Positions 7,266-53,811 of a stretch of 53,998 nt of DNA are shown piece by piece (the first letter of the stretch is position 1; each line of letters begins with the position of its first letter). Both the position numbers and the translations under genes were made by a program. Source of the DNA: an uncultured Methylomarinum sp. (GTDB lineage: Bacteria > Pseudomonadota > Gammaproteobacteria > Methylococcales > Methylomonadaceae). The DNA is taken from positions 1-53,998 of the forward strand of contig CAYNRB010000001.1 of NCBI GenBank assembly GCA_964399475.1. Direction: 5' to 3'. The notes under the pieces were generated by a model. The model saw nothing but the letters and a program-made list of their open reading frames with translations. It did no database searches and was not told where the DNA came from.

Positions 7266-7302
7266 GACAATCACTCCATATTTTTTAGTTTACCAAACAT
7301 GA

Positions 7303-13600: not shown

Positions 13601-14697
13601 TTGGCAAAATTACTAAAAGTGACTTGTGCATTATCTTCTACTGCCAGACTTTCAACCCCTAAATTGACCCCAGATGCACTGGTAATGGTTTGAGTTGCCG
13701 TATCATAGGATAAGTCGCTATCTCCGTTTGCTGTATTGATGTTACCTATGGCTGTTTGTATTTTTGCATCGAAATCACTGGTGTAGGTAGCGGAATCAAC
13801 AACCAATGAAATATTTTCTGGCGTGCCTCCATCTTTTGCTACCAGACTAAAAGATATTTTGTCGCCATTAGTAGATGGCGCACTAGTGTCAAAAGAAACA
13901 CTATTGGCATTGGCTGTAGCATTTACGCCGTTAATTGCATCCAGTTTAGTAGCAATGACCGAGGCATCTCTACTATCTGTTGCATCATTAATAGAAACAA
14001 TTGATGTTTGGCCATCTTTATCTGTTACGGTGATTTTTTGATCGACAAAAGCAGCATCAGTTAAAGCTTCTACCGTAGTATTGCCTGTACTCGCTTTACC
14101 ATTACTGGTTCCACTGGCATTAACAGAAAGATCGCCTGTTGCGACCTCTACGCCTAGAGTAGCATTGTCCGTGTTGAATTTTTCGATACCCAAACTATCC
14201 GAAGTAGATTTAGCAATATTAACCTGGATTGTTTGTCCTGAATCAGCGCCAACTTGAAATTGCTGTGCTTGGAAAGAACCATCTAATAATTTAATACTGT
14301 TAAATGAGGTAGTCTCTGAAATTCTATCCAGCTCTGAAACTAATTGGTTAACCTCTGATTGCAAGCTTAAACGGTCAGAAGAAGAGTTTGTGGCGTTAGC
14401 AGACTGTACCGCAAGCTCACGAATTCTTTGTAATATATTGGTACTTTCAGATAATGCGCCTTCAGCCGTTTGAGCCAATGAAATACCATCATTGGCATTT
14501 CGGCTAGCTTGACCTAAGCCTTTTATTTGTGAAGTAAGGCGGTTTGAAATTGCCAAGCCCGCAGCATCATCTTTTGCACTATTAATACGTAAACCTGTTG
14601 ACAGACGCTGCAATGAGGTAGCCAGTCCCATTTGCGATTTTTCCAGATTTCGTTGCGCATTGATGGATGGAACGTTGGTGTTGATACCTAAACCCAT
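10606..14697 (-). CDS. fliC: giant flagellin (1363 aa)
   Basis: Canonical flagellin N-terminus ([41 protein letters not shown]) and C-terminus ([38 protein letters not shown]). AGGAG RBS 8 nt upstream of ATG 14697. The ~1100-aa variable core has internal repeats and a flagellin-IN-like motif ([43 protein letters not shown]). Confidence 0.93.
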
Positions 14698-34679: not shown

Positions 34680-34760
34680 GCTTTTGTTTGAGAAATAACT
34701 AAATATAATTTATGAGTATCATTTATTATAGAATCAATACTAATAAAACGGGTAGAAATA

Positions 34761-35561
34761 ATGCAGAAAAATATATTTAATAAATATACTGCGACGGGAA
34801 TAACTGATGTTGGATGTGTGCGTAAACACAATGAAGATACCTACCTCATAGATAAGAAACTTGGCTTATTATTGGTAGCAGATGGAATGGGAGGTCATGA
34901 AGCTGGTGAAGTAGCTAGCAAAGAATCTATACGAATCATTCTGCAAATGCTTCGTATGCAACAGCCTGTTGAAGAAAATAAATCATGGTTTTATCGATTA
35001 CTACGCCTGTTTCAACATGATGATGTAGACACCCATGAAGAAGAAGATCATTTGGAAAAGGCTTTATTCGAAGCAAATAACTACATATTCCAACTGAACA
35101 TGGAAAGGGGAGCGCCTAGTGGCACAGGAATGGGCACCACCCTTGCTGGCTGCTGGATAGTGAGGCCTGACTTAATGCTAGTATTTCATATTGGTGATAG
35201 CCGAGTTTATAGGCTTAGAAATGGAGAACTAAAATTAATAACAAAAGATCACTCAGTTTTGCAGGATTGGCATGATAATGGAAAAATCGGCGAGCAACCC
35301 AAATCAAACGTAATTAATCGGGCTGTAGGCCCCTACCAGACAGTTACGCCTGAAATACAGGTAATTGATATTCAAAATACCGACAGCTTTTTAATTTGTT
35401 CAGATGGCTTATCAGATATGGTTGATGATCAAGAAATTGAAAAACAACTAGAAGGTTTAAACGCTAGACAAATTGATAATTACTCCCATAAATTACTGAT
35501 TTCTGCCCTAGCACTAGGAGGGAATGACAATATTACAATTGTTTTGTTAACGCACGATTAA
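34761..35561 (+). CDS. PP2C-family Ser/Thr protein phosphatase
   Basis: 266 aa. Motifs TDVGCVRKHNEDTY, LLLVADGMGGHEAGEVAS, GTTLAG, ICSDGLSD and GGNDNITIVLL. Confidence 0.9.
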   Translation: MQKNIFNKYTATGITDVGCVRKHNEDTYLIDKKLGLLLVADGMGGHEAGEVASKESIRIILQMLRMQQPVEENKSWFYRLLRLFQHDDVDTHEEEDHLEKALFEANNYIFQLNMERGAPSGTGMGTTLAGCWIVRPDLMLVFHIGDSRVYRLRNGELKLITKDHSVLQDWHDNGKIGEQPKSNVINRAVGPYQTVTPEIQVIDIQNTDSFLICSDGLSDMVDDQEIEKQLEGLNARQIDNYSHKLLISALALGGNDNITIVLLTHD

Positions 35562-35718
35562 CTTTGCTAATTAATAACGATGACTCCCAGCAATCTGACC
35601 ATCTACTTTTTTACAAAGTTGATTTAGTCATAAATGTGCTATATTTCTATATCAACAGATGACTTTCAAACAAAAAATCCTCTTGTGTAATTGATTATAT
35701 AAAGTTAAACACCCAAGT

Positions 35719-36426
35719 TCAATCAGATGAAAATTTGATAAATAATTTTTTAATTCTGATTTCATCAGAGGGTATTAATAAGCAACTTGAACTAATCACA
35801 CTTCCATTCAAGGTTACTTTTTTCTTTTTCACTGGACTAATATAAAACGAATGACCCACTTTATCAATTTCTGCAATATGAGCTGCAGTAAAAAAACCAC
35901 CTATCCGAATATCATTCTTTTTTGCCTTTCCAATAGAGTAGCTATCTTTAGTCAATAGCATTTTTTTTATTCCATTTAAATCACCTTTTACGATTAAATA
36001 GAAACTCTTCTGCTTGATATCTGAAGCAGCTTGAGATGTACCGGGTCCAGAAACTTTTGAAGATGACACCATAATTACAGTAGCATCACTCGACTCTTGT
36101 ACTGATACTGGAGCAGAACTATTTTGCTGTATCTGACTCCATTCCGAAATCTTTAAAATATGTTTACCAATAGTAACCGAATCTTCAAAACGAATTTTTT
36201 GACGTGTGCTTATCTTTTGGCTATTTAGAAATGTACCATTCGAACTATTCAAATCTTCAATGGTATATTGTCCGTTACTTACACTTATTACAGCATGAAA
36301 ACTTGAAACGCCCATATTATTGATAACAACTTCATTACTAGATGCTCTTCCAATACTAACAGTAACAGTTTTAATGGGTAAAGACTGCTTTAAGACGCCA
36401 TTAAAATAAATTTCAAGATAATTCAT
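35719..36426 (-). CDS. protein with two FHA domains
   Basis: 235 aa. FHA-1: SIGRASSNEVVINNMGVSSFHAVISVSNGQYTIEDLNSSNGTFLNSQKI. Ser-rich linker. FHA-2-like: YSIGKAKKNDIRIGGFFTAAHIAEIDKVGHSFYISPV..KVTLNGSVI. Confidence 0.8.
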   Translation of the reverse strand: MNYLEIYFNGVLKQSLPIKTVTVSIGRASSNEVVINNMGVSSFHAVISVSNGQYTIEDLNSSNGTFLNSQKISTRQKIRFEDSVTIGKHILKISEWSQIQQNSSAPVSVQESSDATVIMVSSSKVSGPGTSQAASDIKQKSFYLIVKGDLNGIKKMLLTKDSYSIGKAKKNDIRIGGFFTAAHIAEIDKVGHSFYISPVKKKKVTLNGSVISSSCLLIPSDEIRIKKLFIKFSSD

Positions 36427-38086: not shown

Positions 38087-41000
38087 TTACTTTACTTTAT
38101 TACTAGTAAACCAGGGAGTACCATCTTTTTTCAAATACATTTTATGCATTTCTTGTTGAGTAAAAGGTCTGGATCCAATTCTACCAAAAACTGCAATTTG
38201 ACCGCCTGTTTCATCTACTGCTCGATCTCTATCTAAACCTTTAGACAAGGCTAATGCAATATTTGAAGTTGGATACGAAGCTATTAGTTCAGGCTTAGGT
38301 TCTGGGCTAAAGCCATAAAACTTAGGCTGACTATCCGGTGATGTTAGTTGCAATACTTTCAATCCATTTTTACCATCAGCAACATAACCAATCAAAGAAG
38401 CATTAGTAGAAGCGACAATAACATCTCTTGCATCATTGAGTTGACCATTAGCTGTAAACAACTGTAGCAGCTTAGGACTTTCTGGTTTTTCAACATTTAT
38501 GATAGCTAAACCCTGCGAGCCTGCTGCCACATAAGCATAGGTTCTAGCAACATAAATTCGATTCGCATCCGTTAAAGCAACCGAGACACCACTGATTAAT
38601 TTTGCTTTTTCAGGCGTTGTTACATCAATAACTTTAAAACCATCTGCATCGGTTACAAATAGATATCTAAATTGTAAAGCTGTAGATTTAGCATTATTCA
38701 AGGGTATCACTGCCGCAACTTTTGGCGATAGCGGCGAATCCAAATTGATAATAATCAAACCGACATCCGCTGTAATATAGGCATAATAGCCACCTAGCGT
38801 TATATGTTTAGCTCCTTTTAGAATATTATCCCCATTCCATGTTAATGCACGTGTAAGAAAGTTATTTCTCGCTTTTCCGTCCGACAATGTATTTACATCG
38901 GTCAGAATTAAGCCTTCTTCTGCATCAACAATAAAGGCATAGTTATAGATTGGATGGAAATCCTGTTCCTGATTCGTCTCATTCATCAATTTACTCATCG
39001 CTTCGGCAGAAAGACCATAGTTACTTTCATAGCGGCGTTGTGGATGAATGGGTTGATTGGTAGGTAAAGCCATACAAGTCGCATTTTTAGAACTTATATG
39101 AGTATCATGTCCCAATGGTGAAAATGGCGCCGTTATAATTCGTTGAGAAATACCTTTATTGGCAATACTGGCAACATCATAGACTCTAAATCCACCTGAG
39201 CCTTCGGCAACATATAAATATTCTCCGCGTAGTTGTAAGCAGCTTGCTACATCAGAACTATGACTATGTACTCTTTTTAAGACTTGTTTATTATTTTGAT
39301 GATCCTTATACCAATCAGGGTAAGCATATTTATGTAAATAGCTACCTATCACGGCTTGAGGTTCTTCCCACTCAGTTACTTGAATAGCTGATATACCACT
39401 TTCTGTTCCCACATAGGCATTATATCCAACAAAGTTTACAAAATTGGTACCCTGTAATAACAGTTGAGCCATGATTGCATTATTATCATTTTCTGCAGAT
39501 AAATGACAATCTTCACATTGTTTGGTTTCTGTTTTACGCGTTGTATGTGGAAAATTGGGGGCGAATGCCTGTGCACTAAAACCACTCGATGAAACTGGAG
39601 GTTGCTGGATATAAATCAGTTCCCTGTTTGCATTTCTGGATGAAAGTATCAAGGCTGAAGATGAACGCACAGGAACTATTCTATTGCCCTTAACCTGTCC
39701 ATGACGACCAATTTGAAACATTTGGTCACGAACTACTTGTGGATTATAAGTTGCGTAATTACGCGCTTCTCCACCTTCATAATGAAGTGTGTCTGTTTTC
39801 CAGTTTGCCTGAATAGGTAAATGACAACCGGCACAACTGGTCACCCACGAACTATGACAAGTAAAGCAGGTCATATTTTCATTTTTATGAGCTCTATCTT
39901 CAGGAGCTACATCGGTTCCCCAAGCTAATGTCTCTGAATTTTTCGATACTAATTTTGCTCGAGCTGCTTTGGCATTATAGGTGGTATGAGCAGGATTAAC
40001 GGTATCTTTGACTAGACTCAGCTCCCATTCCTTATCACTAAATAAGGCAGAACGTTGATACAACTTATTGCCACGCCATTCAAATCGTAATTTACCATCC
40101 TGATTCCTTAATGTAGAAAGATCAGTACCACCAATTGCAGCAGCAGGGCCACTGGTTCTTAAATTTGGATAGGCATCAGCTGTACCATGACAATCTATGC
40201 AATCAACTTCTATTGCTGCTGCTACTTCACCATATAAATGACCATTGCCATGCGAATCTTGAGCAAAGTGACAATCTACACAGTGCATCCCTACGTCCAT
40301 GTGAATAGATGACAGATGAACAGCTTTATTGAATTTTTCTGGATCAGTATCACTGACTTCATTACCTGATGCATCTAATAAGGTACCTTTACGATCACGC
40401 TTAAAAACTGCTCTAAAATTCCAGCCATGTCCGTGATAGTCTGCAAATTGAGTGTCTTTAAGCTTAGGATTCAAATCGGAAACATTTTTGACAAATTCAA
40501 GGTCTTTCCATTTACCTCTTGCTGCTGCTTCCTCAGGATTCCTTTCATTGATTTTTCTGACTTCCGCATGACTCAAAATTTGCTCAGGATCTGGGTTTGC
40601 TCCTGCTCTTACTTGATCACTATTCAAATATCTTTGCTTTTCAGGCCACATATGCGGCGCATCCGATTCATAATCCCACATCGTATAACCCATGAAACTA
40701 TTTACAAAAATATTAGGTTGATGCATATGACAAATCATACATTGACTGGTCGGAATTGCTCTGGTGAATTGATGTTTAATAGGATGTCCCGACTCATTTT
40801 TAGAAATAGTCGGATCTATGGTCTGAGTTTTTCCTGAATGTCCAGCTTTGGCATAAGGACCAGAATGTTTTGGATCCCGATCATTTGCATAGACTACGTG
40901 ACAAGACCCACAACCTGATGTTCGATAATCTCCAGGTTGATCATTGGTCCCTAAAAACCATGTAAAAGGATCATTAAGACGAGTTTTGTGTATGTTAAGA

Positions 41001-41878
41001 ACGGGAACTGAAATTCGTCCACCGGTACCAGAACCTCGATTAGATTGCTTAATATCTGGACGACCCGGCTCTTCAAGTCGTTGAATCAAACCTAAGGCAT
41101 TAGGCAACCCAGTCTCAGGAAATAAATTAGTTATATTACGCCCACCTGCTTCAAAGACTCTGAAAACATCACCCTGTGGCATGTTTTCCCATCTTGGCAA
41201 CGGAATTAATGCAGGTACAATCCCTTTAGCGATCATATTTTCATCAGGTTCATGTGGATTAACCAACTTCTTGGGTAATCCTTCGCGCGTATATGATTCG
41301 CCCATAAAATAGCGTTTATATGGAACAATTCCATTATTGTATGCAGCTCCGCCCCACAACATAGCACCGGTAGCCATTAAACTTCTTTCAGATGCTTCAA
41401 TTATCTTCATATGGCATGCACCACATGACTCTCTTACAATCCGATAATCACTAGGATTAACAAAACGAATATATTCTGGTGATTCTCTATTCAAAAGGGT
41501 AAAACTATGCTTTGGATTCGCACTACTGGGATAATTCCACTCATTTGGTAAAGTAGGGATGACATGTGCTTTATTCATTGAAAGCTGGTATTCCAAATCT
41601 TTATCTGCACTGTTTTCCGGCTTAAACTCATCAGCGTTACCACCATGACAATCTACGCAACCCAAAGGCACTGCTTCAGTTTGATGCATAGATTGACTGT
41701 CTGTTTCGATATGACAACTCAAACAACCTCTAGACTTGGCATCAACTGCTTGCGGATCTTGGAATTGAGGTGCAATCAATGTTGAAGAATCTTTATCAAC
41801 ATCAAAAGCAGCATATCCGTTTATTGATACCAATAGGAATGCTATAAAAGAAAATATAATCAGCTTACATTTATTCAT
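38087..41878 (-). CDS. secreted decahaem c-type cytochrome fused to a C-terminal LVIVD-repeat beta-propeller
   Basis: 1263 aa with a signal peptide (IIFSFIAFLLVSINGYAA). Ten CxxCH motifs at aa 52, 74, 152, 323, 380, 533, 560, 671, 682 and 788. Residues ~880-1185 carry at least six LVIVD-like repeats (YLYVAEGSGGFRVYDV, YAFIVDAEEGLILTDV, YAYITADVGLIIINLDSP, YLFVTDADGFKVIDVTTP, YAYVAAGSQGLAIINVEKP, IGYVADGKNGLKVLQLTSP). Confidence 0.85.
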   Translation of the reverse strand: MNKCKLIIFSFIAFLLVSINGYAAFDVDKDSSTLIAPQFQDPQAVDAKSRGCLSCHIETDSQSMHQTEAVPLGCVDCHGGNADEFKPENSADKDLEYQLSMNKAHVIPTLPNEWNYPSSANPKHSFTLLNRESPEYIRFVNPSDYRIVRESCGACHMKIIEASERSLMATGAMLWGGAAYNNGIVPYKRYFMGESYTREGLPKKLVNPHEPDENMIAKGIVPALIPLPRWENMPQGDVFRVFEAGGRNITNLFPETGLPNALGLIQRLEEPGRPDIKQSNRGSGTGGRISVPVLNIHKTRLNDPFTWFLGTNDQPGDYRTSGCGSCHVVYANDRDPKHSGPYAKAGHSGKTQTIDPTISKNESGHPIKHQFTRAIPTSQCMICHMHQPNIFVNSFMGYTMWDYESDAPHMWPEKQRYLNSDQVRAGANPDPEQILSHAEVRKINERNPEEAAARGKWKDLEFVKNVSDLNPKLKDTQFADYHGHGWNFRAVFKRDRKGTLLDASGNEVSDTDPEKFNKAVHLSSIHMDVGMHCVDCHFAQDSHGNGHLYGEVAAAIEVDCIDCHGTADAYPNLRTSGPAAAIGGTDLSTLRNQDGKLRFEWRGNKLYQRSALFSDKEWELSLVKDTVNPAHTTYNAKAARAKLVSKNSETLAWGTDVAPEDRAHKNENMTCFTCHSSWVTSCAGCHLPIQANWKTDTLHYEGGEARNYATYNPQVVRDQMFQIGRHGQVKGNRIVPVRSSSALILSSRNANRELIYIQQPPVSSSGFSAQAFAPNFPHTTRKTETKQCEDCHLSAENDNNAIMAQLLLQGTNFVNFVGYNAYVGTESGISAIQVTEWEEPQAVIGSYLHKYAYPDWYKDHQNNKQVLKRVHSHSSDVASCLQLRGEYLYVAEGSGGFRVYDVASIANKGISQRIITAPFSPLGHDTHISSKNATCMALPTNQPIHPQRRYESNYGLSAEAMSKLMNETNQEQDFHPIYNYAFIVDAEEGLILTDVNTLSDGKARNNFLTRALTWNGDNILKGAKHITLGGYYAYITADVGLIIINLDSPLSPKVAAVIPLNNAKSTALQFRYLFVTDADGFKVIDVTTPEKAKLISGVSVALTDANRIYVARTYAYVAAGSQGLAIINVEKPESPKLLQLFTANGQLNDARDVIVASTNASLIGYVADGKNGLKVLQLTSPDSQPKFYGFSPEPKPELIASYPTSNIALALSKGLDRDRAVDETGGQIAVFGRIGSRPFTQQEMHKMYLKKDGTPWFTSNKVK

Positions 41879-41929
41879 GATAGTTGTACGAATGAATTAG
41901 AAAAAGTCAACATTACAATTTACCTAGAT

Positions 41930-43768
41930 TTAGTATGTGAGTATTAAATTACCCAAAACAGAATATAGTGTTTTATTACCATATAAATCTTTTAGGGCAT
42001 CTCCAGGGACTAAAGCCGCACCTGATAGTCGAAAAACAATATTCTGACTAAACTTAGGCCTATATATAGCAGAAACAGATAAGTCCCAGCCTATATCCGA
42101 GCTGATGCTGCCCTGATTCCTGGCAACTTCAAGCACATTTGTCTCATCAAAATAGAGTTTGTTAAAGTTTGTTGAAAGTCGAAATTCGGGTAAAATATCC
42201 ATATCGGTTCCAAGACCTATTAACACTATCCCCGGATTGGTAAAGTTTGACTGACCTTGATCTTTTGAAGATTCTAGTGAATTTAATATGCCATTTCTAC
42301 CAGATAGGGCAACACCTCCACCTCCTATAAAAGGCACGGCTTGCCTGATCCAAAAGCTACTATCAGCTCCAGCAAACTGAGGGTTTTCAACTATCGCATC
42401 ATAACCATTTGACTTGTTATCAAAGGCATCATCATCACCTGACGCATATAATCCAGACAACCTGACCCGTATCCAATCAAAATCCATGGACAGTTCACCG
42501 GCAAAAAAGTAAGCATCTATTTCACTTTCATCTACATTATATAAACCAGTCGTTTCATCTCCAAATAGATAATATCCAGATACAGTCAGATTGACCCGCC
42601 CAAAATGACCATCTCCATTAAAGCCCGCGTAATAGGCATCATAATCTCGGCCGATTTCATTTCCAATTGAAGCAGGTCTGACTAAAAATCCATTATCGTC
42701 GAAGAAACTATTATTTGCTTCTCTATTTCGGTTATAAGCAAAAGTTAGTTGAGACGTAAATCCACGTACCGGAAAATCTTGACGAAAAATATTTCCAAAG
42801 AAAACTTGATCATCTCGCAAGTCTTCAGAAATATCATTTAAACCGCTATTGGTATCTTTTTCGTGTCGCCAGATTGCAGCTAAATTGTATTGCCATAAAT
42901 TGTTATCCCATGTACCAAACAATCGAGCACCTAATTGTATATCCTGGAACAGGAAGCCTCTGAAATCTAAGGAAAAAGGCTGAATACCCACTCTGATACT
43001 ATTAAAATCATACCGATCAGAACTATTGTTTATATGATAATCTACAAATAGTTCTTGTATCGCAATATGACCATCTTCACGATCAGTACCTTCGCGCGGA
43101 TCTATATTCAAAAAACGCCGCTCCTCCACATCTGTGTAGTTATAATTAAACACAGGTGTAATACGAAATTCAAAATCTGGTGGTCTAAAAACTGTGTCAC
43201 CTTTGAAAAACACAAAAGCAACAATTAAATTTTGATTAAATAAGTACTGATCCTGAGAACCAAATACATCTATATCACCAGCGCTTGCAGTGGTTTGATT
43301 ACCATTTGGCGTAGGTATAAGCCTGTATTCACCAATCGTATCTGATATTACTGATACATTAGCAAACCAGTCATCAAAAATAGGTCTGTCACTTTTAATC
43401 AAATTCCGGTTATAGGGATCCAGAAAGCCTTCTTTTATGCCAATTGCATCCGCAATTCTCCAGCGATCAGGAACCGGTATAAATGTTTCAGGATAAAGAC
43501 CTTTTAATGCAGGAATCCGTTGAAGTCCACTTTTTCTGTTTGGGTCGGCAAGTTCAACGACTTCTGCTTCACTAACTGCAGTTGCACCAGGTCTGATACG
43601 CCTTCTTTCTCCACTCCCTTCATTTGAAGCATTCTCAGAAACGATATCTTGTTCAGCCACTACTGCAATTCCAGCATTTACAGTTGGTAAATAACACCAG
43701 CTGCTAGCTAATAATGTCAAGGCGACAGAACCTATAAAAGGTTTTTTATTATTTTCCACTGCATGCAT
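41930..43768 (-). CDS. putative large outer-membrane beta-barrel protein
   Basis: 612 aa. Signal peptide (SVALTLLASSWCYLPTVNA), pervasive alternating aromatic/polar beta-strand patterning, and a C-terminal ...LGNLILTY aromatic terminus typical of BAM substrates. Its start overlaps the upstream gene by 20 nt. Confidence 0.6.
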   Translation of the reverse strand: MHAVENNKKPFIGSVALTLLASSWCYLPTVNAGIAVVAEQDIVSENASNEGSGERRRIRPGATAVSEAEVVELADPNRKSGLQRIPALKGLYPETFIPVPDRWRIADAIGIKEGFLDPYNRNLIKSDRPIFDDWFANVSVISDTIGEYRLIPTPNGNQTTASAGDIDVFGSQDQYLFNQNLIVAFVFFKGDTVFRPPDFEFRITPVFNYNYTDVEERRFLNIDPREGTDREDGHIAIQELFVDYHINNSSDRYDFNSIRVGIQPFSLDFRGFLFQDIQLGARLFGTWDNNLWQYNLAAIWRHEKDTNSGLNDISEDLRDDQVFFGNIFRQDFPVRGFTSQLTFAYNRNREANNSFFDDNGFLVRPASIGNEIGRDYDAYYAGFNGDGHFGRVNLTVSGYYLFGDETTGLYNVDESEIDAYFFAGELSMDFDWIRVRLSGLYASGDDDAFDNKSNGYDAIVENPQFAGADSSFWIRQAVPFIGGGGVALSGRNGILNSLESSKDQGQSNFTNPGIVLIGLGTDMDILPEFRLSTNFNKLYFDETNVLEVARNQGSISSDIGWDLSVSAIYRPKFSQNIVFRLSGAALVPGDALKDLYGNKTLYSVLGNLILTY

Positions 43769-45740
43769 TTTGTTTACCTGAATTTAAAAATGGCTTATAA
43801 GGACATTGAACATAACGTAATCTAACACCAGCGAGTACTAAATTATCTGCGCGAATTTCAGGAGGTGCATTATTTACAGTATTAATTAGCTTACCTGCAT
43901 TATGCACGCCTAAAAAGGAAATCAAATCATCCTGATCAATACCATCACCTGAAACACCCAAGCCACCGATTAAGGTATTACCACGATAGACTGGAACGCT
44001 TCCTGGGAAAATCTGTATTCCATTTCTTAACTCTGGTATGGGCTGACCTACAGTAAAGTTCTGAATTCCCAAAAAGTTAGCAATAAAGTTTAATGTAGCG
44101 GGAGGGGAAGCTGTACAATCTTGTCCGATATCGGGAGCTAAGCCATAAAATGCAGCGACATGAGTCAACATACCATTAATAACCAGATCTAATTGTAATC
44201 CAGTTGAAAAAGGGCTCCATTCTGGAAAAGGCTTGCTAAAAGGGCCATTTTGAGCCCGTTGAAGACCATCAGGGAAAAACGGTCGAGATAAATTTCCACC
44301 GGCTCTATCTGTGAATGCAACTGCACCGGTCAAAACATTAGGATCATTGAATAAAGTAATTGTAGCATCGACATAACTGCTAATGGGAAAGCCAATTGCT
44401 TGACCTGGAAAACTAACATAAACAGCATCAGAAGCTGAATTCAATTTGTCTTGAGCGTCGCTCTTTGAAAAAAACATTGCTGTTCGTGCCTTTTGTAAGG
44501 ACACATCGGTACCAAATATTGGAGCATCTCGAGTTCGAACAACCCCTAGAATATCACCTTGGGTATCCACCAACGAAACTGTAACGCGAGCTTGAGAGTT
44601 AAAGGGTTGACGAATCTGCGCCCTGGCACTATTTGCAACTGCTATTGCACTGCGTAATAAAGCTAAGGATTCATCTCGGCTTATTCCTACACCCGCACGA
44701 ACAGGAAATCTTTCTTGGTTTGCATTATCAACTAGTACGAAAGCATCCAATCCAGCATAATCATTAGATGCCGGCCTTATTCCAGAATTTACCTCACCAA
44801 AAGCAGTACCTGCCAAAACCTGACCATCAAAATAGACAGGAACAGGGATAAGTAAACCTTTACCTGCTATTTGGGATAAATCCGAAAGTACATTAGAAAC
44901 CGTTTGAGTTTTTAAGTTTTTATATCGAATATCAGAATATCGTAGAGACTTACCTTCAACAGTAATACGATCAGCCCGATTTTTTCTGGAAGATTCAAAT
45001 CCTAAGGTTCCAGCAAGTGCAACCCGTTCATCAATAATATTATCCCGATCTCTAATATTAAGATCAGCACCATAAATTAAATCAGTCTCAACGCCAATCC
45101 CCCCAACTAAAGCTCCGTCTTTGTATAATGGAAAGCCACCAGGATCAGCAGAAAGCCCTAATGGAGAACGTTTAGGTCCAACATCTGCACCCGATGAAAA
45201 TCGCGTAACTAAATCTGAACAAGCAAGTGAACTAAATTGCACACCAAACAGTGGCCCTGCTGGTTGATTAAATTCCTGAGGGTTAAAATTCTGCATAATG
45301 ATATGACTTGCAGTACGCGTAGAAAACGCATTGCCTTCTGAAGAAAGATAGGCACCGGTAATTGCTTTGGCAATAGCTGATAGACTAGCTGGAATAACCC
45401 CTTTTATCCCATCCAAACCGGTCATAACGTTTCTTCCACCGTTTATCTCGATTCTTGGAAAAAAAGCATTATTTGGAAAAGGACCATTCATTTGATAAAC
45501 AGCCAATACATTTCCAACTCTATCAGTTACTGAAATTGTAGAGAATACACCCGCTATTTCAGACTCTTGTACAGCCTGAACAATAATCCGTCTAACATCA
45601 CTTTCTGTTAAGAAACTATTCGCTGTTGAGCAAAAGCCTGTACAACCATCCTTCGCAGAAATCTGAGGTGAAAATGATAAACAATTTGCTAGAAACACAA
45701 AACTTGCTATTAATTTTAGATTATATCTTTTCTTTTTCAT
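43749..45740 (-). CDS. secreted protein with two GlcG/HbpS-like (DUF336, haem-binding) domains
   Basis: 663 aa with a signal peptide. Two copies of the GlcG pattern: (1) VRRIIVQAVQES...ISVTDRVGNVLAVYQMNG ... AKAITGAY ... GGFPLYKDGALVGGIGVE; (2) LLRSAIAVANSA...TVSLVDTQGDILGVVRTRDA...SLQKARTAMFF ... FPGSVPVYRGNTLIGGLGVSGDGIDQDD. Confidence 0.6.
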   Translation of the reverse strand: MKKKRYNLKLIASFVFLANCLSFSPQISAKDGCTGFCSTANSFLTESDVRRIIVQAVQESEIAGVFSTISVTDRVGNVLAVYQMNGPFPNNAFFPRIEINGGRNVMTGLDGIKGVIPASLSAIAKAITGAYLSSEGNAFSTRTASHIIMQNFNPQEFNQPAGPLFGVQFSSLACSDLVTRFSSGADVGPKRSPLGLSADPGGFPLYKDGALVGGIGVETDLIYGADLNIRDRDNIIDERVALAGTLGFESSRKNRADRITVEGKSLRYSDIRYKNLKTQTVSNVLSDLSQIAGKGLLIPVPVYFDGQVLAGTAFGEVNSGIRPASNDYAGLDAFVLVDNANQERFPVRAGVGISRDESLALLRSAIAVANSARAQIRQPFNSQARVTVSLVDTQGDILGVVRTRDAPIFGTDVSLQKARTAMFFSKSDAQDKLNSASDAVYVSFPGQAIGFPISSYVDATITLFNDPNVLTGAVAFTDRAGGNLSRPFFPDGLQRAQNGPFSKPFPEWSPFSTGLQLDLVINGMLTHVAAFYGLAPDIGQDCTASPPATLNFIANFLGIQNFTVGQPIPELRNGIQIFPGSVPVYRGNTLIGGLGVSGDGIDQDDLISFLGVHNAGKLINTVNNAPPEIRADNLVLAGVRLRYVQCPYKPFLNSGKQNACSGK

Positions 45741-47160: not shown

Positions 47161-48504
47161 ATGGCTTCAACAGTTAATTTGATTAAAGGCTGCATCTTTT
47201 TTTCATTTTTGTTTTTTCAAATAGCTATTTCTGAAGCAGCCAGTACAGCTATTCCCCAATTCGCAGACAACATCCATTTAGGTGTTGCAACATGTGCAGG
47301 GAGCGCATGTCATGGCTCTTCAGAACCCTTTGACACCTCCACCGTATTACAAAATGAATATCTCACTTGGCAACGCCACGACAAACACTCCAAAGCCTAT
47401 AAAGTTCTTTTCAATGATAGATCTAAAAGAATTGCTCGCAATTTAGGCCTAAAAGCAGCTCATACCGCGAAAATTTGCCTGGATTGCCATACTGATAATG
47501 TAGCTAAAGATAAACGTGGGCGCCGTTTTCAATTATCTGACGGTATTGGTTGTGAAGCTTGTCACGGTGGCGCTGAAAAATATTTAGGCCCACATGTCTC
47601 TGGATTAGCCACACATCAAGAAAATATCGACAATGGACTCTACCCTACTGAAAATCCAATCCAGAGAGCAAAACTTTGCCTTTCATGCCACTTAGGTACC
47701 AATAGCCAATTTGCAACCCATGACATTATGGGAGCGGGTCATCCACGAATTAACTTTGAATTGGATACCTATACTGCAACATCACCCGCCCACTATAAAG
47801 TCGACAAAGATTACCGAGAGAGAAAAGTAGTCTGGAGCCATGCTAGAACATGGGCTGTTGGTCAAGCAATGGCCGTTCAACAATATCTTAATCTTCTTAC
47901 CTCGCCAAAACGGCTAAAAAACGGCCTATTTCCAGAACTTGCTGTATTTGAATGTTATGCCTGCCATCAATCTATGAATGGTCAACGCTGGCAAAAACGT
48001 GAATCCAGTGACATAGGACCCGGAAATATTCGACTTCAGGAAAGCAATATTCTGATGATGAAACATATTGCTAAAGTTATTGACCCTAGCCTTGCCAGTT
48101 CTTTGCATACCAAAACTTTAAATCTTCATCAAGCCAGCACACAAAGCATCCCAAGCATTGTCAGTGCCGCAAAAGAACTAAAAGTATTGAATAGACAGCT
48201 AATTAATAAAATTGCCAGTACAAGTTTTTCTAGCGCAATTATTAACAAAGTACTTTCCAGCATCATCAATGATGGGATTAAAGGCAATTACTTTGATTAC
48301 GCAAGTGCCGAACAAAGTTTAATGGCAATTGAAGCATTAGCAACAACTTTAGCCAACGCCCGTGCGATTGATTTTTCAAGTTCCAGCCCTTTAGCTAAAA
48401 GCATTGATAAACTCTACGTGCTATTAGTAAATGATGATAATTTTTCTCCAAGCTCATTTGCTAGCGAATTAAAACAAATACAAACTAACCTTTCTATAAA
48501 ATAG
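47161..48504 (+). CDS. periplasmic multihaem (4x CxxCH + 1x CxxxxCH) c-type cytochrome with a non-haem helical C-terminal half
   Basis: 447 aa with a signal peptide (CIFFSFLFFQIAISEA). Motifs CAGSACH, CLDCH, CEACH, CLSCH and CYACH all lie in the first ~270 aa. AGGGG RBS. Confidence 0.8.
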   Translation: MASTVNLIKGCIFFSFLFFQIAISEAASTAIPQFADNIHLGVATCAGSACHGSSEPFDTSTVLQNEYLTWQRHDKHSKAYKVLFNDRSKRIARNLGLKAAHTAKICLDCHTDNVAKDKRGRRFQLSDGIGCEACHGGAEKYLGPHVSGLATHQENIDNGLYPTENPIQRAKLCLSCHLGTNSQFATHDIMGAGHPRINFELDTYTATSPAHYKVDKDYRERKVVWSHARTWAVGQAMAVQQYLNLLTSPKRLKNGLFPELAVFECYACHQSMNGQRWQKRESSDIGPGNIRLQESNILMMKHIAKVIDPSLASSLHTKTLNLHQASTQSIPSIVSAAKELKVLNRQLINKIASTSFSSAIINKVLSSIINDGIKGNYFDYASAEQSLMAIEALATTLANARAIDFSSSSPLAKSIDKLYVLLVNDDNFSPSSFASELKQIQTNLSIK

Positions 48505-48691: not shown

Positions 48692-51100
48692 ATGTCAGAT
48701 TCAAAACATTACAATATAGTTATCATTGGTTCTGGCCCCGGCGGAATGAGTGCTGCGGGTCGTGCTCAGGAAGCAGGTTTAAATTATATTTTACTTGAAG
48801 CCACAAGCCACCTATCCTATACCATTCACCTTTATCAAAAAGGTAAACACGTCATGGATGAACCGACTATTTTGCCTTTACGCAGTACCTTCGGGTTTAC
48901 AGCCGAATCTCGAGAGGAAATATTAGGTAAATGGGAAGATAAAATAAAATCCCTCAATGTTAATATTCAGTACGACTCCTATGTCGAAACAATTTCTGGT
49001 GAATCAGGAAATTTCACCATTAATATCAAAGGTGGGGAAGTAATAACTGCCGATAAAATTGTGCTTGGAATCGGGCTTCAAGGTAATCTTCGCAAAATGG
49101 GAGTAGAAGGTGAAGATTTACCTTTTGTACAATATCAACTGGATGACCCTGAAGAATATGAAGATGAAACGATTGTGGTTATTGGAGCGGGTGATGCAGC
49201 CATAGAAAATGCCATTGCTTTAGCAAAACAAAATAACGTTATTATCGTAAACCGAAAGAATGAGTTTGCACGAGCAAAAAAGGGCAATCTTAATGGCATT
49301 ACTAGAGCGATAGAAACCGAAACTTTAGAATGCTACTACAATTCAACCAGTGAATGCGTTAAAGCCCTTGATCAACCAGGTGAAAATGGAGAAAAAGGTG
49401 TTTTAGTTCTCAATACTGATGAGGGAACCACTGAAATACCTATACATCGAATCATTGCTCGCTTAGGTGCAATCCCTCCCAGACGATTTGTTGAAGCTTG
49501 TGGAATTGTTTTTCCTAGTAAGGATCCTGCGGCAGTTCCTGCTATCAGTGAAACCTATGAATCAAATGTTCCTGGCTTGCATATAGTCGGTGCTTTAGGC
49601 GGAAATCCTCTGATTAAAGCAGCCATGAACCAAGGCTATGAGGTCATTGAACACATTCAAGGCAACCCAATCGCACCAGCGGATGAGCCACTCTTAAAAG
49701 ACAAGTTTTCTAACCTTGATGCCAGCTTGTCGGTTAGCCAATTACTTGCCCAACTCTATAGCGCTTTACCATTCCTCCAATCATTAACTAAATTACAATT
49801 TAGAGAATTCATTTTAGACAGTGAGATAAGATTACCTCAACCAGGCGAGACCATATATGCAATCAATGATTTCAGTAACTCCTTCTATTCTATTATCACA
49901 GGTCAAGTCGATTTAATTTCTACCGCTGGAGAACGTGATCAGAAATCTACACTACAAAATGGTGATTTTTTTGGTGAATGGAGCTTAATATCGGGTCGCC
50001 GACGTTCTGATACCGCTATTGCCGGTAATAACTGCTTATTAATCGAAAGCGGTCGTAGAATGATGAAAAAACAAATCAGCTCGGATCCTTCCATAGCCGA
50101 TGCGATCAATAAAGTTTTCATCATGCGTGCAGTACAAACTCATCTTGCGCCTGGTGTTCCTCAAGCATTACTCAAAAAATACTTGAATCGAGCAGATATT
50201 GCTTATTTCAAACCCGGTGATTTCTTGCAGAAAGAAGGGGAATCTTGTAGTACCTTTCATATAATACGCTCTGGATCAGTTACGGTTTCACGCAAAGTAT
50301 CTGGCAAAGAAGTCTTAATTTCGTATATGCCTGTGGGTGAATTTCTGGGAGAAATGGCCATACTCAGTGGCAATGCTTGCATGACAACCGCTACGGCTAC
50401 TGTCGCAACTGAAACCATTAGTCTTGATGCCAGCATTTTTACCGAGATGATGAATGATGTTCCTCAAGTTGCACAACTAATTGAAAGCACTTTACAAGAA
50501 CGCCTTAGGGATTATGTACAACTACAAAATCATCCTGAACGAGGTGCAGCAATCTCATTTATGATGCAACAGGGCTTAGGTGAAGCAACCGATGTTCTGG
50601 TTATTGACGAATCATTATGCGTACAATGCGATAACTGCGAAAAAGCCTGTGCGGAAACCCACAACGGCACTTCTCGATTAGATCGTGAAGCTGGCCCCAC
50701 CTATGCCTCACTCCATATTCCAACATCTTGCCGACATTGTGAACAACCACACTGTATGAAAGATTGCCCTCCTGATGCCATTCATCGAGCAAATAATGGT
50801 GAAGTCTTTATTGACCAAAGTTGTATAGGATGTGGTAATTGCCAGCAGAACTGTCCCTACGGTGTCATACAAATGGCAAAATCCGGAACCAAAACCACCA
50901 ATCTTTTTCAATGGCTAGTACTTGGTAAAGGTTCGGCACCCGGAGAAAAAGCAACCCATTTTGATGCTGATGTTCAAAAGAAAGCGGTTAAATGTGATAT
51001 GTGTAAAGATTTACCCGGCGGACAAGCCTGCGTTAGAGCCTGTCCAACGGGTGCTGCAATTCGCATAAATCCTGAACAACTTATTGAATTAACCATATAA
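48692..51100 (+). CDS. cytoplasmic fusion oxidoreductase: FAD/NAD(P)-binding pyridine-nucleotide-disulfide-type domain + two cyclic-nucleotide-binding domains + four-cluster [4Fe-4S] ferredoxin domain
   Basis: 802 aa with no signal peptide. Rossmann motifs IVIIGSGPGGMSAAGRA and IVVIGAGDAAIENA. cNMP-like blocks FFGEWSLISGRRRSDTAIA and FLGEMAILSGNACMTTATA. Cys groups CVQCDNCEKAC, CRHCEQPHCMKDCP, CIGCGNCQQNCP and CDMC..x7..CVRACP (DmsB/NrfC-like spacing). Confidence 0.8.
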   Translation: MSDSKHYNIVIIGSGPGGMSAAGRAQEAGLNYILLEATSHLSYTIHLYQKGKHVMDEPTILPLRSTFGFTAESREEILGKWEDKIKSLNVNIQYDSYVETISGESGNFTINIKGGEVITADKIVLGIGLQGNLRKMGVEGEDLPFVQYQLDDPEEYEDETIVVIGAGDAAIENAIALAKQNNVIIVNRKNEFARAKKGNLNGITRAIETETLECYYNSTSECVKALDQPGENGEKGVLVLNTDEGTTEIPIHRIIARLGAIPPRRFVEACGIVFPSKDPAAVPAISETYESNVPGLHIVGALGGNPLIKAAMNQGYEVIEHIQGNPIAPADEPLLKDKFSNLDASLSVSQLLAQLYSALPFLQSLTKLQFREFILDSEIRLPQPGETIYAINDFSNSFYSIITGQVDLISTAGERDQKSTLQNGDFFGEWSLISGRRRSDTAIAGNNCLLIESGRRMMKKQISSDPSIADAINKVFIMRAVQTHLAPGVPQALLKKYLNRADIAYFKPGDFLQKEGESCSTFHIIRSGSVTVSRKVSGKEVLISYMPVGEFLGEMAILSGNACMTTATATVATETISLDASIFTEMMNDVPQVAQLIESTLQERLRDYVQLQNHPERGAAISFMMQQGLGEATDVLVIDESLCVQCDNCEKACAETHNGTSRLDREAGPTYASLHIPTSCRHCEQPHCMKDCPPDAIHRANNGEVFIDQSCIGCGNCQQNCPYGVIQMAKSGTKTTNLFQWLVLGKGSAPGEKATHFDADVQKKAVKCDMCKDLPGGQACVRACPTGAAIRINPEQLIELTI

Positions 51101-51120: not shown

Positions 51121-52059
51121 ATGCAAGAATCATTTCTGAATTATGAACGTTTCCGTTACTTAAAGCTGGCTGTAGCTGTTTCATTGCTTTCCCTTATTCT
51201 GTATATATTTCATGATCCAGGTGTTGCACCGCCAAATGGAGGCACTTGGTTAGGCTACTTGTTAGGTAGTATTTCGGCGGGAATTATCTTTTTACTGCTT
51301 TGGTTTGGTATCAGAAAACGCCGATATTCCTCAACAGCTGGTACAGTAAAAGGCTGGTTATCTGCACATATATACCTTGGCATCGCATTAATTTTTGTTG
51401 GAACGCTTCATACTGGATTTCAATTTGGCTGGAATGTCCACACGCTAGCCTATACATTAATGATTCTAGTTATTCTAAGTGGATTCTATGGATTATATGT
51501 TTATATCCGTTATCCAACCATGCTTAATACCCATAGAAATGGAATAAATCGCTTGGAAATGCTTAAGGAAATTAATGAACTGGATGAACTGTCACTCTCC
51601 ATTGCCAATAACGAATTAAGTCCAAAAATTCATGAAGTTATCTTGCGTTCTATCGAAAAAACTCGAATAGGTACCTCTGTCTGGCAACAATTGACTGCAA
51701 TGGAATACGGCTCTGACCCCTTTGAAGGTGTTGAAAAAATGTTAGCAGATTATCAACAAGGTGTGCAAAGTGAAACCTTAATGCTGGACAGCAATCAGCA
51801 ATCAGGTAACTCAACTAACTCACAAGCTACCATGATGTATATCAGTAATGCCTTGAATGTGATTGACTCGGATCAGCTTGAATCCGTACGAAGATTACTG
51901 GAAGCCGTGGGAAGAAAAAAATCATTAGTCAAACAAGTTAGACGTGATATCCAGTTAAAAGCAACCATCCAGTTCTGGCTATATATTCATATTCCACTTT
52001 CACTAGCTTTATTTGCTGCATTAATCATCCATATATTTAGCGTTTTCTTTTATTGGTAA
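51121..52059 (+). CDS. integral membrane protein, candidate dihaem b-type transmembrane electron carrier
   Basis: 312 aa with about 5 TM helices and a ~150-aa soluble insert. TM3 reads H83-x13-H97 (HIYLGIALIFVGTLH) and TM5 reads H290-x13-H304 (HIPLSLALFAALIIH). Confidence 0.5.
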   Translation: MQESFLNYERFRYLKLAVAVSLLSLILYIFHDPGVAPPNGGTWLGYLLGSISAGIIFLLLWFGIRKRRYSSTAGTVKGWLSAHIYLGIALIFVGTLHTGFQFGWNVHTLAYTLMILVILSGFYGLYVYIRYPTMLNTHRNGINRLEMLKEINELDELSLSIANNELSPKIHEVILRSIEKTRIGTSVWQQLTAMEYGSDPFEGVEKMLADYQQGVQSETLMLDSNQQSGNSTNSQATMMYISNALNVIDSDQLESVRRLLEAVGRKKSLVKQVRRDIQLKATIQFWLYIHIPLSLALFAALIIHIFSVFFYW

Positions 52060-52065
52060 GCTATC

Positions 52066-53811
52066 ATGAAATGTCTTGTAAATTATATTACTCGCCGTAA
52101 AAACGGTAATATTAGTACTAAATCAAAAGAAGTTGATGCCAACAGCATTGGTATTGGACGTGCTACTGACCAGGAAATTTTCTTATCAGATCTTCGTATT
52201 GCTTATAAACATGCTGAAATAGTTCTGCTTGAAGGAAAATACTACATCAAATCCCTGGCTTTATCTGGCATTAGACTGAACAATGCCATTACTTCATCAG
52301 TTTTGTTGACACCAGGCGTTGTCGTACAAATAGGAAACTACGAACTTAAAGTTATTGAAAAACCGGGTTATGACCTCGTTGTGGAACTTGAACAAGTCAC
52401 CACAAGTGAAGTTCTAAATGACCAAATAAAATTAGAGTCAAAACTGGATTTAAATCAAACAAAATTAAACAAGCGCCTTCTATCCTGGATAGGTTTTGCT
52501 ACGATATTTGTACTGTTTTTTATTCTCCCTTTAAGTTCTTCATTATTTCAACCGATTAAAGACATTAGCTCTAAAATTCCGCTTATACCAACCGATGCGG
52601 CATGGAAATCAGGCTCCATGGCATCTGTACATCATTTTTTCAAAAATGACTGTCGCTCTTGCCATCAAGATGCATTTGTTCAAGTTAAAGATGAAGCCTG
52701 TACTAGTTGCCATAAAGATACCCACATACATGCCAACGATAACTTAATGGTCAATCAAAATTTAAATAATATCGCTTGTCAGGATTGCCATAAGGAACAC
52801 AATGGAACTGACGGGATGATTATGCCTTCATCCAATAATTTCTGTAGTGATTGCCATGCAGATTTAAAAGAAACATTAGCAGATAAAACTAAATTACTAG
52901 ATGCTAGTGATTTTGGCGATGACCATCCTGAGTTTAGAGCCTCTATCCCTTATTCTAAGTTTGGCAAAAAGAGATTTTCTCGTATATCTATGGATAATAC
53001 TGAGAAACTTAAAGAAAAAAATGCGGTGGTTTTTTCTCATAAAGCTCATTTACAACCTTATTTTCCAGCCAGATTTAAAGAATTGACTAAAAATGGTGCT
53101 GAAAAAATGGCATGTATGGACTGCCACGTTCCTGATAGTGGTGGGAAACGCATGATTCCCATCAATTTTGAAGACAACTGTGAGAGCTGTCATAAGCTGG
53201 AAATTGGCAAAAAACAAGCTCGTTTAAAATTACCACATGAGGCAACAACTGAAGTCTATTATTATATAGAACAGTATTATAAGTCACTTGCCCTTGATGG
53301 CGGCATAACCGATACTGAAACCCCAACAGGTTTGAGAACCAGACGACGAGCAGGCCAAGCCATTTCTTCTGAGGAAAGATTAGTTGCATTAAACTGGGCT
53401 TCAAAAAAATCTAAGCAAGTTGCTGAAGAAATTTTTAACTACACGCTTTGTAAAACCTGCCATATAGTAACCAGCTCTGAGAATGCAACACCTCCTTGGA
53501 ACATTTCAGCCGTTTACACACCAGACTTATGGTTTCCAAAAGCAAATTTCACCCATTCCAAACATACAACCATGGAATGCTTAGATTGTCATAATGTAGA
53601 GCAGTCTGAAGTAGGCGAAGATGTTTTGATGCCCAAAATCGCTGATTGCCGAAGTTGTCACGCTGGGGCTCATAATGATGAATTATTGGCTTCTGGATGT
53701 ATTGATTGCCATAGCTTTCATATTGGAAAAGAACTACTTGCTCCTCCTGCACCTACTATTGTAGAACTGAAAGCTACTGGTAATGAAGCTGAAGAAGTAA
53801 TAATAGAATAG
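52066..53811 (+). CDS. FHA domain - single TM - decahaem c-type cytochrome fusion protein
   Basis: 581 aa. N-terminal FHA-like block (IGIGRATDQEIFLSDLRIAYKHAEIVLLEGKYYIKSLALSGIRLNN). TM at aa 138-160 (LSWIGFATIFVLFFILPLSSSLF). Ten CxxCH motifs follow: CRSCH, CTSCH, CQDCH, CSDCH, CMDCH, CESCH, CKTCH, CLDCH, CRSCH, CIDCH. Confidence 0.85.
   Translation: MKCLVNYITRRKNGNISTKSKEVDANSIGIGRATDQEIFLSDLRIAYKHAEIVLLEGKYYIKSLALSGIRLNNAITSSVLLTPGVVVQIGNYELKVIEKPGYDLVVELEQVTTSEVLNDQIKLESKLDLNQTKLNKRLLSWIGFATIFVLFFILPLSSSLFQPIKDISSKIPLIPTDAAWKSGSMASVHHFFKNDCRSCHQDAFVQVKDEACTSCHKDTHIHANDNLMVNQNLNNIACQDCHKEHNGTDGMIMPSSNNFCSDCHADLKETLADKTKLLDASDFGDDHPEFRASIPYSKFGKKRFSRISMDNTEKLKEKNAVVFSHKAHLQPYFPARFKELTKNGAEKMACMDCHVPDSGGKRMIPINFEDNCESCHKLEIGKKQARLKLPHEATTEVYYYIEQYYKSLALDGGITDTETPTGLRTRRRAGQAISSEERLVALNWASKKSKQVAEEIFNYTLCKTCHIVTSSENATPPWNISAVYTPDLWFPKANFTHSKHTTMECLDCHNVEQSEVGEDVLMPKIADCRSCHAGAHNDELLASGCIDCHSFHIGKELLAPPAPTIVELKATGNEAEEVIIE

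Follow-up and report, generated by a model that had tools for sequence, protein, structure and literature searches.

The gene at positions 51121 to 52059 (plus strand) of the stretch of Methylomarinum DNA considered here, which is 53,998 nucleotides long and is called the window throughout, encodes a protein with five transmembrane (TM) helices that probably binds two b haems and transfers electrons across the membrane. Our overall reading, held with moderate confidence, is that this five-TM protein is a di-haem cytochrome b carrying electrons from a flavoprotein encoded directly upstream to an inner haem, on to an outer haem, and from there to a decahaem cytochrome encoded directly downstream. 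The motif, its conservation, the topology of the protein, and the gene order were observed directly, and the interpretation as a two-b-haem protein is supported by its agreement with every computational test that we ran.

The open reading frame begins with ATG, carries an AAGGA sequence 12 nt 5′ of the start, and gives a clean translation of 312 amino acids with histidines at positions 31, 83, 97, 107, 138, 171, 290, and 304. Hydropathy and an AlphaFold2 model built from 64 homologues (predicted local distance difference test score, 80; predicted template modelling score, 0.70) placed five TM helices at approximately residues 12-31, 43-64, 77-99, 106-131, and 284-310. An earlier note on this DNA had claimed two histidine pairs spaced i/i+14 inside hydrophobic helices, and translation and hydropathy confirmed both of them: H83 and H97 in TM3 delimit the segment HIYLGIALIFVGTLH (residues 83-97), and H290 and H304 in TM5 delimit the segment HIPLSLALFAALIIH (residues 290-304). 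The corresponding codons are located at 51367-51369 (H83), 51409-51411 (H97), 51988-51990 (H290), and 52030-52032 (H304). When the histidine content of TM3 and TM5 was held fixed, both pairs fell at i/i+14 by chance in 0.13% of shuffles. The same 14-residue register ligates haems bL and bH in helices B and D of cytochrome b of bc1 complexes. TM4 and TM5 are separated by an insert of ~152 residues that is all-helical in the AlphaFold2 model (helices at 144-165, 168-180, 187-192, 202-220, and 234-245, with TM4 and TM5 themselves extended into the cytoplasm) and differs in length among homologues. For this insert, which the earlier note had rightly described as about 150 residues long and without an obvious family, no Pfam, NCBIfam, or PDB-profile match was found. 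The gene and those of its parts on which the argument is built are as follows.

51121..52059, plus strand: gene of the five-TM protein, a predicted di-haem cytochrome b resembling the inner-membrane proteins (IMPs) of porin-cytochrome clusters (PCCs) and PtdF (open reading frame, clean translation, homologues, AlphaFold2)
51247..51312, plus strand: TM2, residues 43-64, running out to in, with conserved G45, G49, and G63 and ending in R65-K66-R67 (alignment)
51349..51417, plus strand: TM3, residues 77-99, running in to out, with W79-x3-H83-x13-H97 and the invariant G87 (alignment)
51436..51513, plus strand: TM4, residues 106-131, running out to in, with N105/H107 at the periplasmic mouth and S120-G121-x-x-G124 as the SGXXG motif (alignment)
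51514..51969, plus strand: cytoplasmic helical insert between TM4 and TM5, residues 132-283 (AlphaFold2, ends rich in Lys and Arg)
51970..52050, plus strand: TM5, residues 284-310, running in to out, with W286-x3-H290-x13-H304 and P292 (alignment)

At an E value of ≤1e-3, 4219 homologues were found among 90%-identity clusters and 3350 among the representatives of 50%-identity clusters, with lengths spanning 255 to 385 amino acids. Relatives occupy at least 574 genomic sites in the GTDB collection of species-representative genomes, mostly in Lysobacterales, Nevskiales, Methylococcales, and Burkholderiales and including the cultured genera Dokdonella, Tahibacter, and Solimonas; the closest named homologue of the 312-amino acid protein is from Methyloprofundus. 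The haem reading of the earlier note depended on the conservation of all four histidines, and this was found. In an alignment of 102 divergent representatives (31 to 47% identity to the query, mean column identity of 23%), only nine columns were invariant (G49, R67, H83, G87, H97, G121, P132, H290, and H304), four of which are the paired histidines and three more of which are the TM glycines G49, G87, and G121. Conservation of ≥90% was seen for W79, W286, G45, G63, R65, K66, N105, H107, and G124. In a second alignment of 127 sequences, H83 and H97 were each present in 127, H290 in 120 (six gaps and one substitution), and H304 in 121 (three gaps and three substitutions). H31 in TM1 is not conserved (39/127), and H31 and H171 are kept only among close relatives. 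The two HX13H motifs were retained in 370 of 382 full-length homologues, both WX3HX13H motifs in 360, and the ordered signature WX3HX13H...SGxxG...WX3HX13H in 350. The 12 homologues that do not retain both HX13H motifs appear to be truncated or frameshifted, at least one of them (P0157) being a frameshifted product.

Across the family, the mean number of Lys plus Arg residues was 1.6 for the N-terminus, 0.5 for the TM1-TM2 loop, 4.4 for the TM2-TM3 loop, and 0.14 each for the TM3-TM4 loop and the C-terminus, and the insert carried 2.4 in its first 20 and 5.8 in its last 20 residues. According to the positive-inside rule, the N-terminus is therefore located in the cytoplasm and the C-terminus outside, the insert is cytoplasmic, and TM3 and TM5 run in parallel from in to out. 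As a consequence of this parallel orientation, H83 and H290 are positioned in the cytoplasmic leaflet and H97 and H304 in the periplasmic leaflet, so that the partner histidines share a leaflet at the level of topology, as the earlier note had presupposed. H83 and H290 each follow a conserved Trp at the cytoplasmic interface by four residues. The conserved face of TM5 contains both of its histidines, with offsets of 1 degree for H290 and 39 degrees for H304, and TM3 is conserved on every face, as expected for a central helix. Two further i/i+14 pairs, G49/G63 in TM2 (51265-51309) and H107/G121 in TM4 (51439-51483), are in register with the histidine pairs of TM3 and TM5. Such an arrangement, with two histidine helices flanked by two glycine helices, is also that of the haem bundle in cytochrome b. 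Comparison of TM2-TM3 with TM4-TM5 and of TM3 with TM5 brought the Trp and both histidines into register, and an internal duplication was not significant (E = 0.02-0.055).

From the spacing, conservation, and topology of the four histidines we infer a five-helix inner-membrane cytochrome b with its N-terminus in the cytoplasm and its C-terminus in the periplasm, in which the parallel helices TM3 and TM5 would hold two b-type haems between them, each with bis-His ligation. H83 and H290 would ligate the haem on the cytoplasmic side and H97 and H304 the haem on the periplasmic side. The glycines of TM2 (G49, G63) and TM4 (G121, G124) would provide space for the haems, and likely propionate partners are R67 for the inner haem and N105/H107 for the outer one. 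The two haems together would form an electron wire of ~20 Å through the membrane.

The genes surrounding the five-TM gene supply candidate donors and acceptors for such a wire. The following neighbours are relevant.

48692..51100, plus strand: 802-amino acid protein combining a flavin adenine dinucleotide (FAD)/NAD(P)H (Pyr_redox) part with cyclic nucleotide monophosphate (cNMP)-binding and iron-sulfur (FeS) domains (Pfam, NCBIfam, motifs)
52066..53811, plus strand: membrane-anchored decahaem cytochrome c, 581 amino acids (domain and motif evidence)
47161..48504, plus strand: secreted cytochrome c554-like pentahaem protein (four CxxCH motifs and one Cx4CH motif)
38087..45740, minus strand: divergent envelope module made up of the next three genes (domain and motif evidence)
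43749-45740, minus strand: HbpS-like (haem-degrading/GlcG-like) protein of 663 amino acids with a lipobox-like signal
41930-43768, minus strand: 612-amino acid protein resembling an outer-membrane barrel, without a Pfam match (judged from composition and a C-terminal aromatic residue only)
38087-41878, minus strand: 1263-amino acid decahaem protein with ten CxxCH motifs and an LVIVD beta-propeller

The 802-amino acid flavoprotein gene ends 20 nt 5′ of the five-TM gene. Its product lacks a signal peptide. It carries GxGxxG motifs at residues 13 and 165 for the binding of FAD and NAD(P)H, a pair of cNMP-binding domains, and four 4Fe-4S-type Cys clusters, three of the CxxCxxCxxxC type at 643, 680, and 711 and one with CxxC...CxxxCP at ~766. 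Pfam recognized cNMP_binding and Fer4_11 (PF13247; 2.6e-11), and the C-terminus forms a four-cluster ferredoxin domain of the DmsB/FdnH/HybA/HydN type. The 581-amino acid cytochrome gene starts 6 nt 3′ of the five-TM gene and encodes an N-terminal FHA domain, one TM helix (residues 136-165), and 10 CxxCH motifs; the protein is membrane anchored, with the FHA domain in the cytoplasm and the haem domain in the periplasm. The earlier note had placed the five-TM gene between a cytoplasmic FeS/flavin protein and a periplasmic decahaem protein. The positions were correct, but the decahaem protein is not simply periplasmic, owing to its TM anchor and its cytoplasmic FHA domain.

Synteny was counted over 83 related loci. 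The decahaem cytochrome gene was located directly downstream of the five-TM gene in 81 of them, the other two ending at contig ends, and the FAD-cNMP-FeS gene was located directly upstream in 76. Genes for the HbpS-like protein (60/83), the barrel-like protein (53/83), and the LVIVD decahaem protein (48/83) were also co-located with the five-TM gene, and a c554-like pentahaem gene was present in 13 loci from Methylococcales, Nitrospina, and other lineages. A Gallionellaceae metagenome-assembled genome (L084, 5658-15236) contains the three core genes (those of the flavoprotein, the five-TM protein, and the decahaem cytochrome) alone. These are flanked there by genes for a UbiE-like methyltransferase and for Tim44-like/UbiB proteins, a ubiquinone-biosynthesis context that may be coincidental; a UbiE-like gene also occurs near the cluster in L001 and L085. 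In Magnetococcus sp. YQC-9 (L085, 9001-12333; MEO5345780.1; P0215), the flavoprotein and the five-TM protein are joined in frame in a single product of 1110 amino acids. This single instance could be a true fusion or an artefact of assembly or annotation, and its nearest relative (P0288) is unfused. In published tables, the FeS and IMP pair of Oceanospirillum is entered as 'one gene' or 'N/A' (PMC5566968; 10.1101/2023.11.21.568154).

Proteins of this kind have been described before. He et al. (2017, PMC5566968) reported that the PCC3 and PCC4 clusters encode IMPs of ~300 amino acids with five TM helices, of which TM3 and TM5 each carry a WX3HX13H motif and TM4 an SGXXG motif. They compared these IMPs with cytochrome b and the ferric reductase domain and suggested that two b haems are bound. 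They detected no mutual homology between PCC3 and PCC4 IMPs and found a gene for an Fe-S protein (PF13247) directly upstream of the gene that encodes the IMP in PCC4 subgroup II (PMC5566968). A PCC4-like operon was named ptdABCDEFG in a 2023 preprint, with PtdE as a cNMP-binding 4Fe-4S protein, PtdF as a 'ferric reductase-like' membrane protein, and PtdG as a decahaem cytochrome, and its function was called 'completely unknown' (10.1101/2023.11.21.568154). A 2026 preprint on Ferrigenium described the same three-gene arrangement, including the fusion of FHA and multihaem domains (10.64898/2026.01.22.701106). The five-TM protein of the window, with its 312 residues, shares the size class and the five TM helices of the PCC3/PCC4 IMPs and PtdF and matches the published signature exactly (W79/H83/H97, S120-G121-F-Y-G124, and W286/H290/H304). 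The gene order of PCC4 subgroup II and ptd is shared as well, with an FeS/cNMP gene (PF13247) upstream, a gene with 10 CxxCH motifs downstream, and pentahaem and barrel-like genes nearby. In contrast to ptd, where PtdC and PtdE are separate, the window has the FAD/NAD(P)H, cNMP, and FeS domains in one 802-amino acid protein. Further differences from PCC4 and ptd are the lack of a tetrahaem gene, the cytoplasmic FHA domain of the decahaem cytochrome, and an envelope module with HbpS-like and 10-haem LVIVD proteins next to the barrel-like protein. By its match to the published description, rather than to published sequences, the window protein is an additional member of a class recognized in silico, with a variant PCC4/ptd architecture. 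The description 'uncharacterised membrane protein' in the earlier note therefore applies with respect to experiments, but the protein is no unnoticed novelty, as the motif and the two-haem proposal were published in 2017 (PMC5566968). Two other reports were considered and set aside: the cluster in a Methylobacter electrode paper (PMC13322032) is of the MtrAB type and not the same system, and the LVIVD protein of a Tenderiales preprint is unrelated to the window locus.

Given these partners, the neighbouring FAD/NAD(P)H flavoprotein would supply electrons to the cytoplasmic haem of the five-TM protein through its four-cluster ferredoxin domain. Four-cluster domains of the DmsB/FdnH/HybA type dock on cytochrome b subunits in the membrane, FdnI being one example. 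The outer haem would pass electrons to the membrane-anchored decahaem cytochrome, from which they would reach the pentahaem protein as well as the HbpS-like, barrel-like, and LVIVD proteins of the envelope module, so that the net flow would lead from NAD(P)H to the periplasm or the cell surface. Both the direction of flow and the direct step from FeS cluster to haem are deduced from this arrangement, and a direct, quinone-independent export driven by NAD(P)H has, in our estimate, slightly less than an even chance of being correct. Outward flow would be favoured by both redox and membrane potential and would therefore be dissipative and waste energy. This could explain the heavy gating suggested by the two cNMP domains and the FHA domain and by the genes for a Ser/Thr kinase and a PP2C phosphatase nearby. 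The most specific version of this proposal, that the core trio works as an NAD(P)H:multihaem-cytochrome oxidoreductase that needs no quinone and has cyclic nucleotide and phosphothreonine as its gating signals, comparable to a split bacterial NOX-like exporter, is put forward only tentatively.

Several results weigh against the di-haem cytochrome b or against its proposed electron donor. No Pfam or NCBIfam model scored above its cut-off with the 312-amino acid protein. The best Pfam match, PF01292 (Ni_hydr_CYTB, prokaryotic cytochrome b561), reached 22.5 bits compared to a gathering threshold of 30.1 and covered TM5 only, and PF01794 gave no match in the Pfam scan. In favour of the di-haem reading, matches at an E value of ≤0.01 among the 102 divergent representatives were obtained for PF01292 (46/102), DUF4405 (12/102), and Ferric_reduct (PF01794; 4/102), all of which are di-haem b families, and two homologues bear the UniRef label 'ferric reductase like transmembrane component'. 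PF01292 exceeded 30.1 bits in one of 10 sampled homologues (P0105, 31.8 bits). The matched region and its register vary between homologues, which indicates a family-like pattern and not membership. A sequence search of the PDB revealed no relative of either the single sequence or a 64-sequence profile, even at an E value of ≤10, and a Foldseek comparison of the full AlphaFold2 model with the PDB gave nothing at an E value of ≤0.001; its top matches were long-helix proteins (TTYH, BAR domains, ABC exporters) and were driven by the cytoplasmic insert. Alignment of the 102-sequence profile with the single E. coli proteins MsrQ, FdnI, and YodB by hhalign resulted in probabilities of <1% (0.4% for MsrQ), which are not significant; of these alignments, only the one with FdnI is suggestive, as it pairs H290/H304 with H155/H169. 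No biochemistry on these proteins was found in the literature searched, and the Ferrigenium preprint saw no InterPro redox motif in its 5-TM protein and suggested a scaffold role as a binding platform (10.64898/2026.01.22.701106).

A further point against the proposed chain comes from loci without the flavoprotein. In L088 to L091, the FeS flavoprotein is absent next to the five-TM gene, whereas all four histidines and the decahaem, HbpS-like, barrel-like, LVIVD, and c554 genes are kept. Three of these loci (L088, L089, and L090) represent a marine subfamily of 272 to 276 amino acids with a decahaem cytochrome lacking FHA and a divergent ccm operon for cytochrome c maturation upstream. Small stand-alone cNMP-binding proteins are encoded near the gene in L088, L089, and L091, and L091 has only such a protein upstream. 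In a Rhodanobacteraceae clade (L029), the FeS gene is not at the locus either. A cytoplasmic donor of this kind is therefore not shared by all relatives, and quinol may be the donor instead. The earlier note had held that the gene sits exactly where a transmembrane electron carrier is needed; this fits the window locus but does not stand as a general rule, as the FeS partner is not universal and the quinone pool is a possible partner. We also considered whether the FHA domain and a long insert go together with the FeS flavoprotein. L088 and L090 fit such a correlation, but it was rejected, as FHA occurs without FeS in L091, and the P0210 locus combines FeS and a short insert with the absence of FHA.

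The FeS-less loci favour the alternative that the protein is a quinone-coupled di-haem cytochrome b, with the quinone pool as its main partner and a quinone site near one of the haems, as in FdnI, HyaC, and NarI. Its activity would then be that of a quinol:multihaem-cytochrome oxidoreductase or, in iron oxidizers, of a cytochrome:quinone oxidoreductase, with the FeS flavoprotein as an additional or alternative source of electrons. Quinone coupling was proposed for the PCC3/PCC4 IMPs by He et al. (2017, PMC5566968). The polar pair N105/H107, conserved and beside the predicted periplasmic haem, could form part of a quinone site, and PF01292, the nearest family in Pfam, comprises quinone-reactive subunits. 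However, the FeS flavoprotein gene is located directly upstream in the window and in 76 of the 83 loci and is fused in frame once, its cytoplasmic four-cluster ferredoxin domain would be left without another obvious acceptor, no recognizable quinone-site motif was identified, and a quinol oxidase on the P side would need no haem on the cytoplasmic side. We regard quinone coupling as rather unlikely, yet as the most probable of the alternatives.

The scaffold role suggested for the Ferrigenium protein is much less probable. According to this explanation, the histidines would bind a metal or serve structure or sensing, and the protein would tether the decahaem cytochrome and the flavoprotein without electron transfer. 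The lack of a match to curated families or solved structures and the abundance of signalling domains at the locus are compatible with it. Two HX13H motifs on parallel helices, at matched depth, with Trp at -4 and flanking invariant glycines, correspond however to the classical di-haem b pattern, the recurrent sub-threshold matches were only to di-haem b families, and a scaffold would leave the cytoplasmic FeS chain and the periplasmic haems unconnected. The least probable explanation in our view is a reversed, inward flow, in which envelope cytochromes would deliver electrons from Fe(II) or a cathode to the b haems and further via FeS to FAD, with reduction of NAD(P)+ for autotrophy. Relatives do occur in Gallionellaceae, Sideroxydans, and Magnetococcales, and in the iron oxidizer Ferrigenium, a 5-TM protein encoded in this three-gene arrangement is expressed (10.64898/2026.01.22.701106). 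Electron transfer from c-type haem to NAD(P)+ would nevertheless be strongly uphill, with no coupling device visible, and most carriers are methanotrophs or aerobic heterotrophs (Dokdonella, Tahibacter, Solimonas).

Genes for regulatory proteins adjoin the cytochrome cluster of the window. A Ser/Thr protein kinase (minus strand), a PP2C phosphatase (plus strand), and a stand-alone protein with two FHA domains (minus strand) are encoded beside it at 32970-36426. PP2C and FHA genes also adjoin the cluster in the Methylococcales locus L004, and in L092 there is a kinase as well as an FHA domain fused to the FAD-cNMP-FeS protein. The recurrence of kinase, PP2C, and FHA genes suggests that the system is controlled via phosphothreonine. 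The set of HbpS-like, barrel-like, and LVIVD genes follows the core genes in most Lysobacterales loci and is inverted in the window, where an OmpA-like protein is also encoded on the opposite strand near the cytochrome cluster. The remaining genes of the window are flagellar and C1-metabolism genes of a Methylococcales-type methanotroph, and an Rfam scan of the whole window gave no match. Two of the flagellins are very large (10606-14697 and 4698-7274, both on the minus strand; 1362 and 857 amino acids) and combine normal Flagellin_N and Flagellin_C ends with a huge central region. A third flagellin-family gene (3338-4639, 432 amino acids) next to a fliD-like gene possibly encodes the hook-associated protein FlgL, and fliD, flaG, and fliS are located beside the flagellin genes.

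To our knowledge, wherever the entry of electrons into extracellular electron transfer at the inner membrane has been characterized (CymA, ImcH, CbcL, and CbcBA), it draws on the quinol pool. The five-TM class is very widespread, and most of its members have a cytoplasmic flavo-FeS protein for NAD(P)H as their partner. Provided that the haems and the direct step from FeS to haem are real, the system would provide a regulated disposal of cytoplasmic reducing power to the periplasm or the cell surface, a route relevant to aerobes, methanotrophs, nitrite oxidizers, and iron oxidizers, and a role would be assigned to the 'IMP'/PtdF gene that three papers left open. If the gated exporter is real as well, the pyridine-nucleotide pool would be joined directly to an envelope cytochrome conduit in hundreds of mostly aerobic proteobacterial species. 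Cultured carriers such as Dokdonella immobilis, Tahibacter spp., and Solimonas sp. make the proposed haem content and the proposed bypass of quinones by the chain from FeS via haem b to haem c directly testable.

Functional precedents for the di-haem cytochrome b proposed here are found in NOX/FRE, in MsrQ with Fre, in FdnH-FdnI, and in TmcABCD/HmcEF. The likeness to cytochrome b of the bc1 complex consists in the HX13H motifs on two helices and in conserved i/i+14 glycines on the flanking helices, with G49/G63 comparable to the glycines of helices A and C. In cytochrome b, the histidines are on helices B and D of eight and Qo and Qi sites are present, whereas the five-TM protein has no Pfam or PDB match to it, so that the resemblance is an analogy and not membership. 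TmcABCD, HmcEF, and DsrMK of sulfate reducers share the three-part logic for carrying electrons across the membrane, in which a membrane di-haem b is combined with a multihaem cytochrome c in the periplasm and an FeS protein in the cytoplasm. These systems, however, use a NarI-like cytochrome b and an HdrD-like FeS protein, have no flavin/NAD(P)H, cNMP, or FHA domains, and showed no detectable sequence relation. FdnI, HyaC, and CybB (PF01292) resemble the putative system in that a membrane di-haem b is fed by a DmsB/FdnH-like 4x[4Fe-4S] module and an HX13H motif is located on the last helix. In the FdnI family, the ligands are distributed 1+1+2 over TM1, TM2, and TM4 of four helices and the FeS partner is periplasmic, whereas the window protein has a 2+2 distribution on TM3 and TM5 of five helices and a cytoplasmic FeS partner.

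In overall design, the ferric-reductase-domain proteins (NOX, FRE, and STEAP, and MsrQ with cytosolic Fre) also show a cytoplasmic N-terminus and two histidine pairs on parallel helices TM3 and TM5. In these proteins, a stack of two b haems carries electrons from cytosolic NAD(P)H and flavin to the outer face, the same route that is proposed here, and the cytosolic TM4-TM5 loop, likewise cytosolic in the window protein, serves to dock the dehydrogenase. Their core has six TM helices, whereas the window protein has five and a helical insert of ~150 residues in the TM4-TM5 loop. In contrast to the ferric-reductase-domain proteins, the dehydrogenase would here be a separate protein with a four-cluster FeS relay, and the acceptor would be a multihaem cytochrome c.

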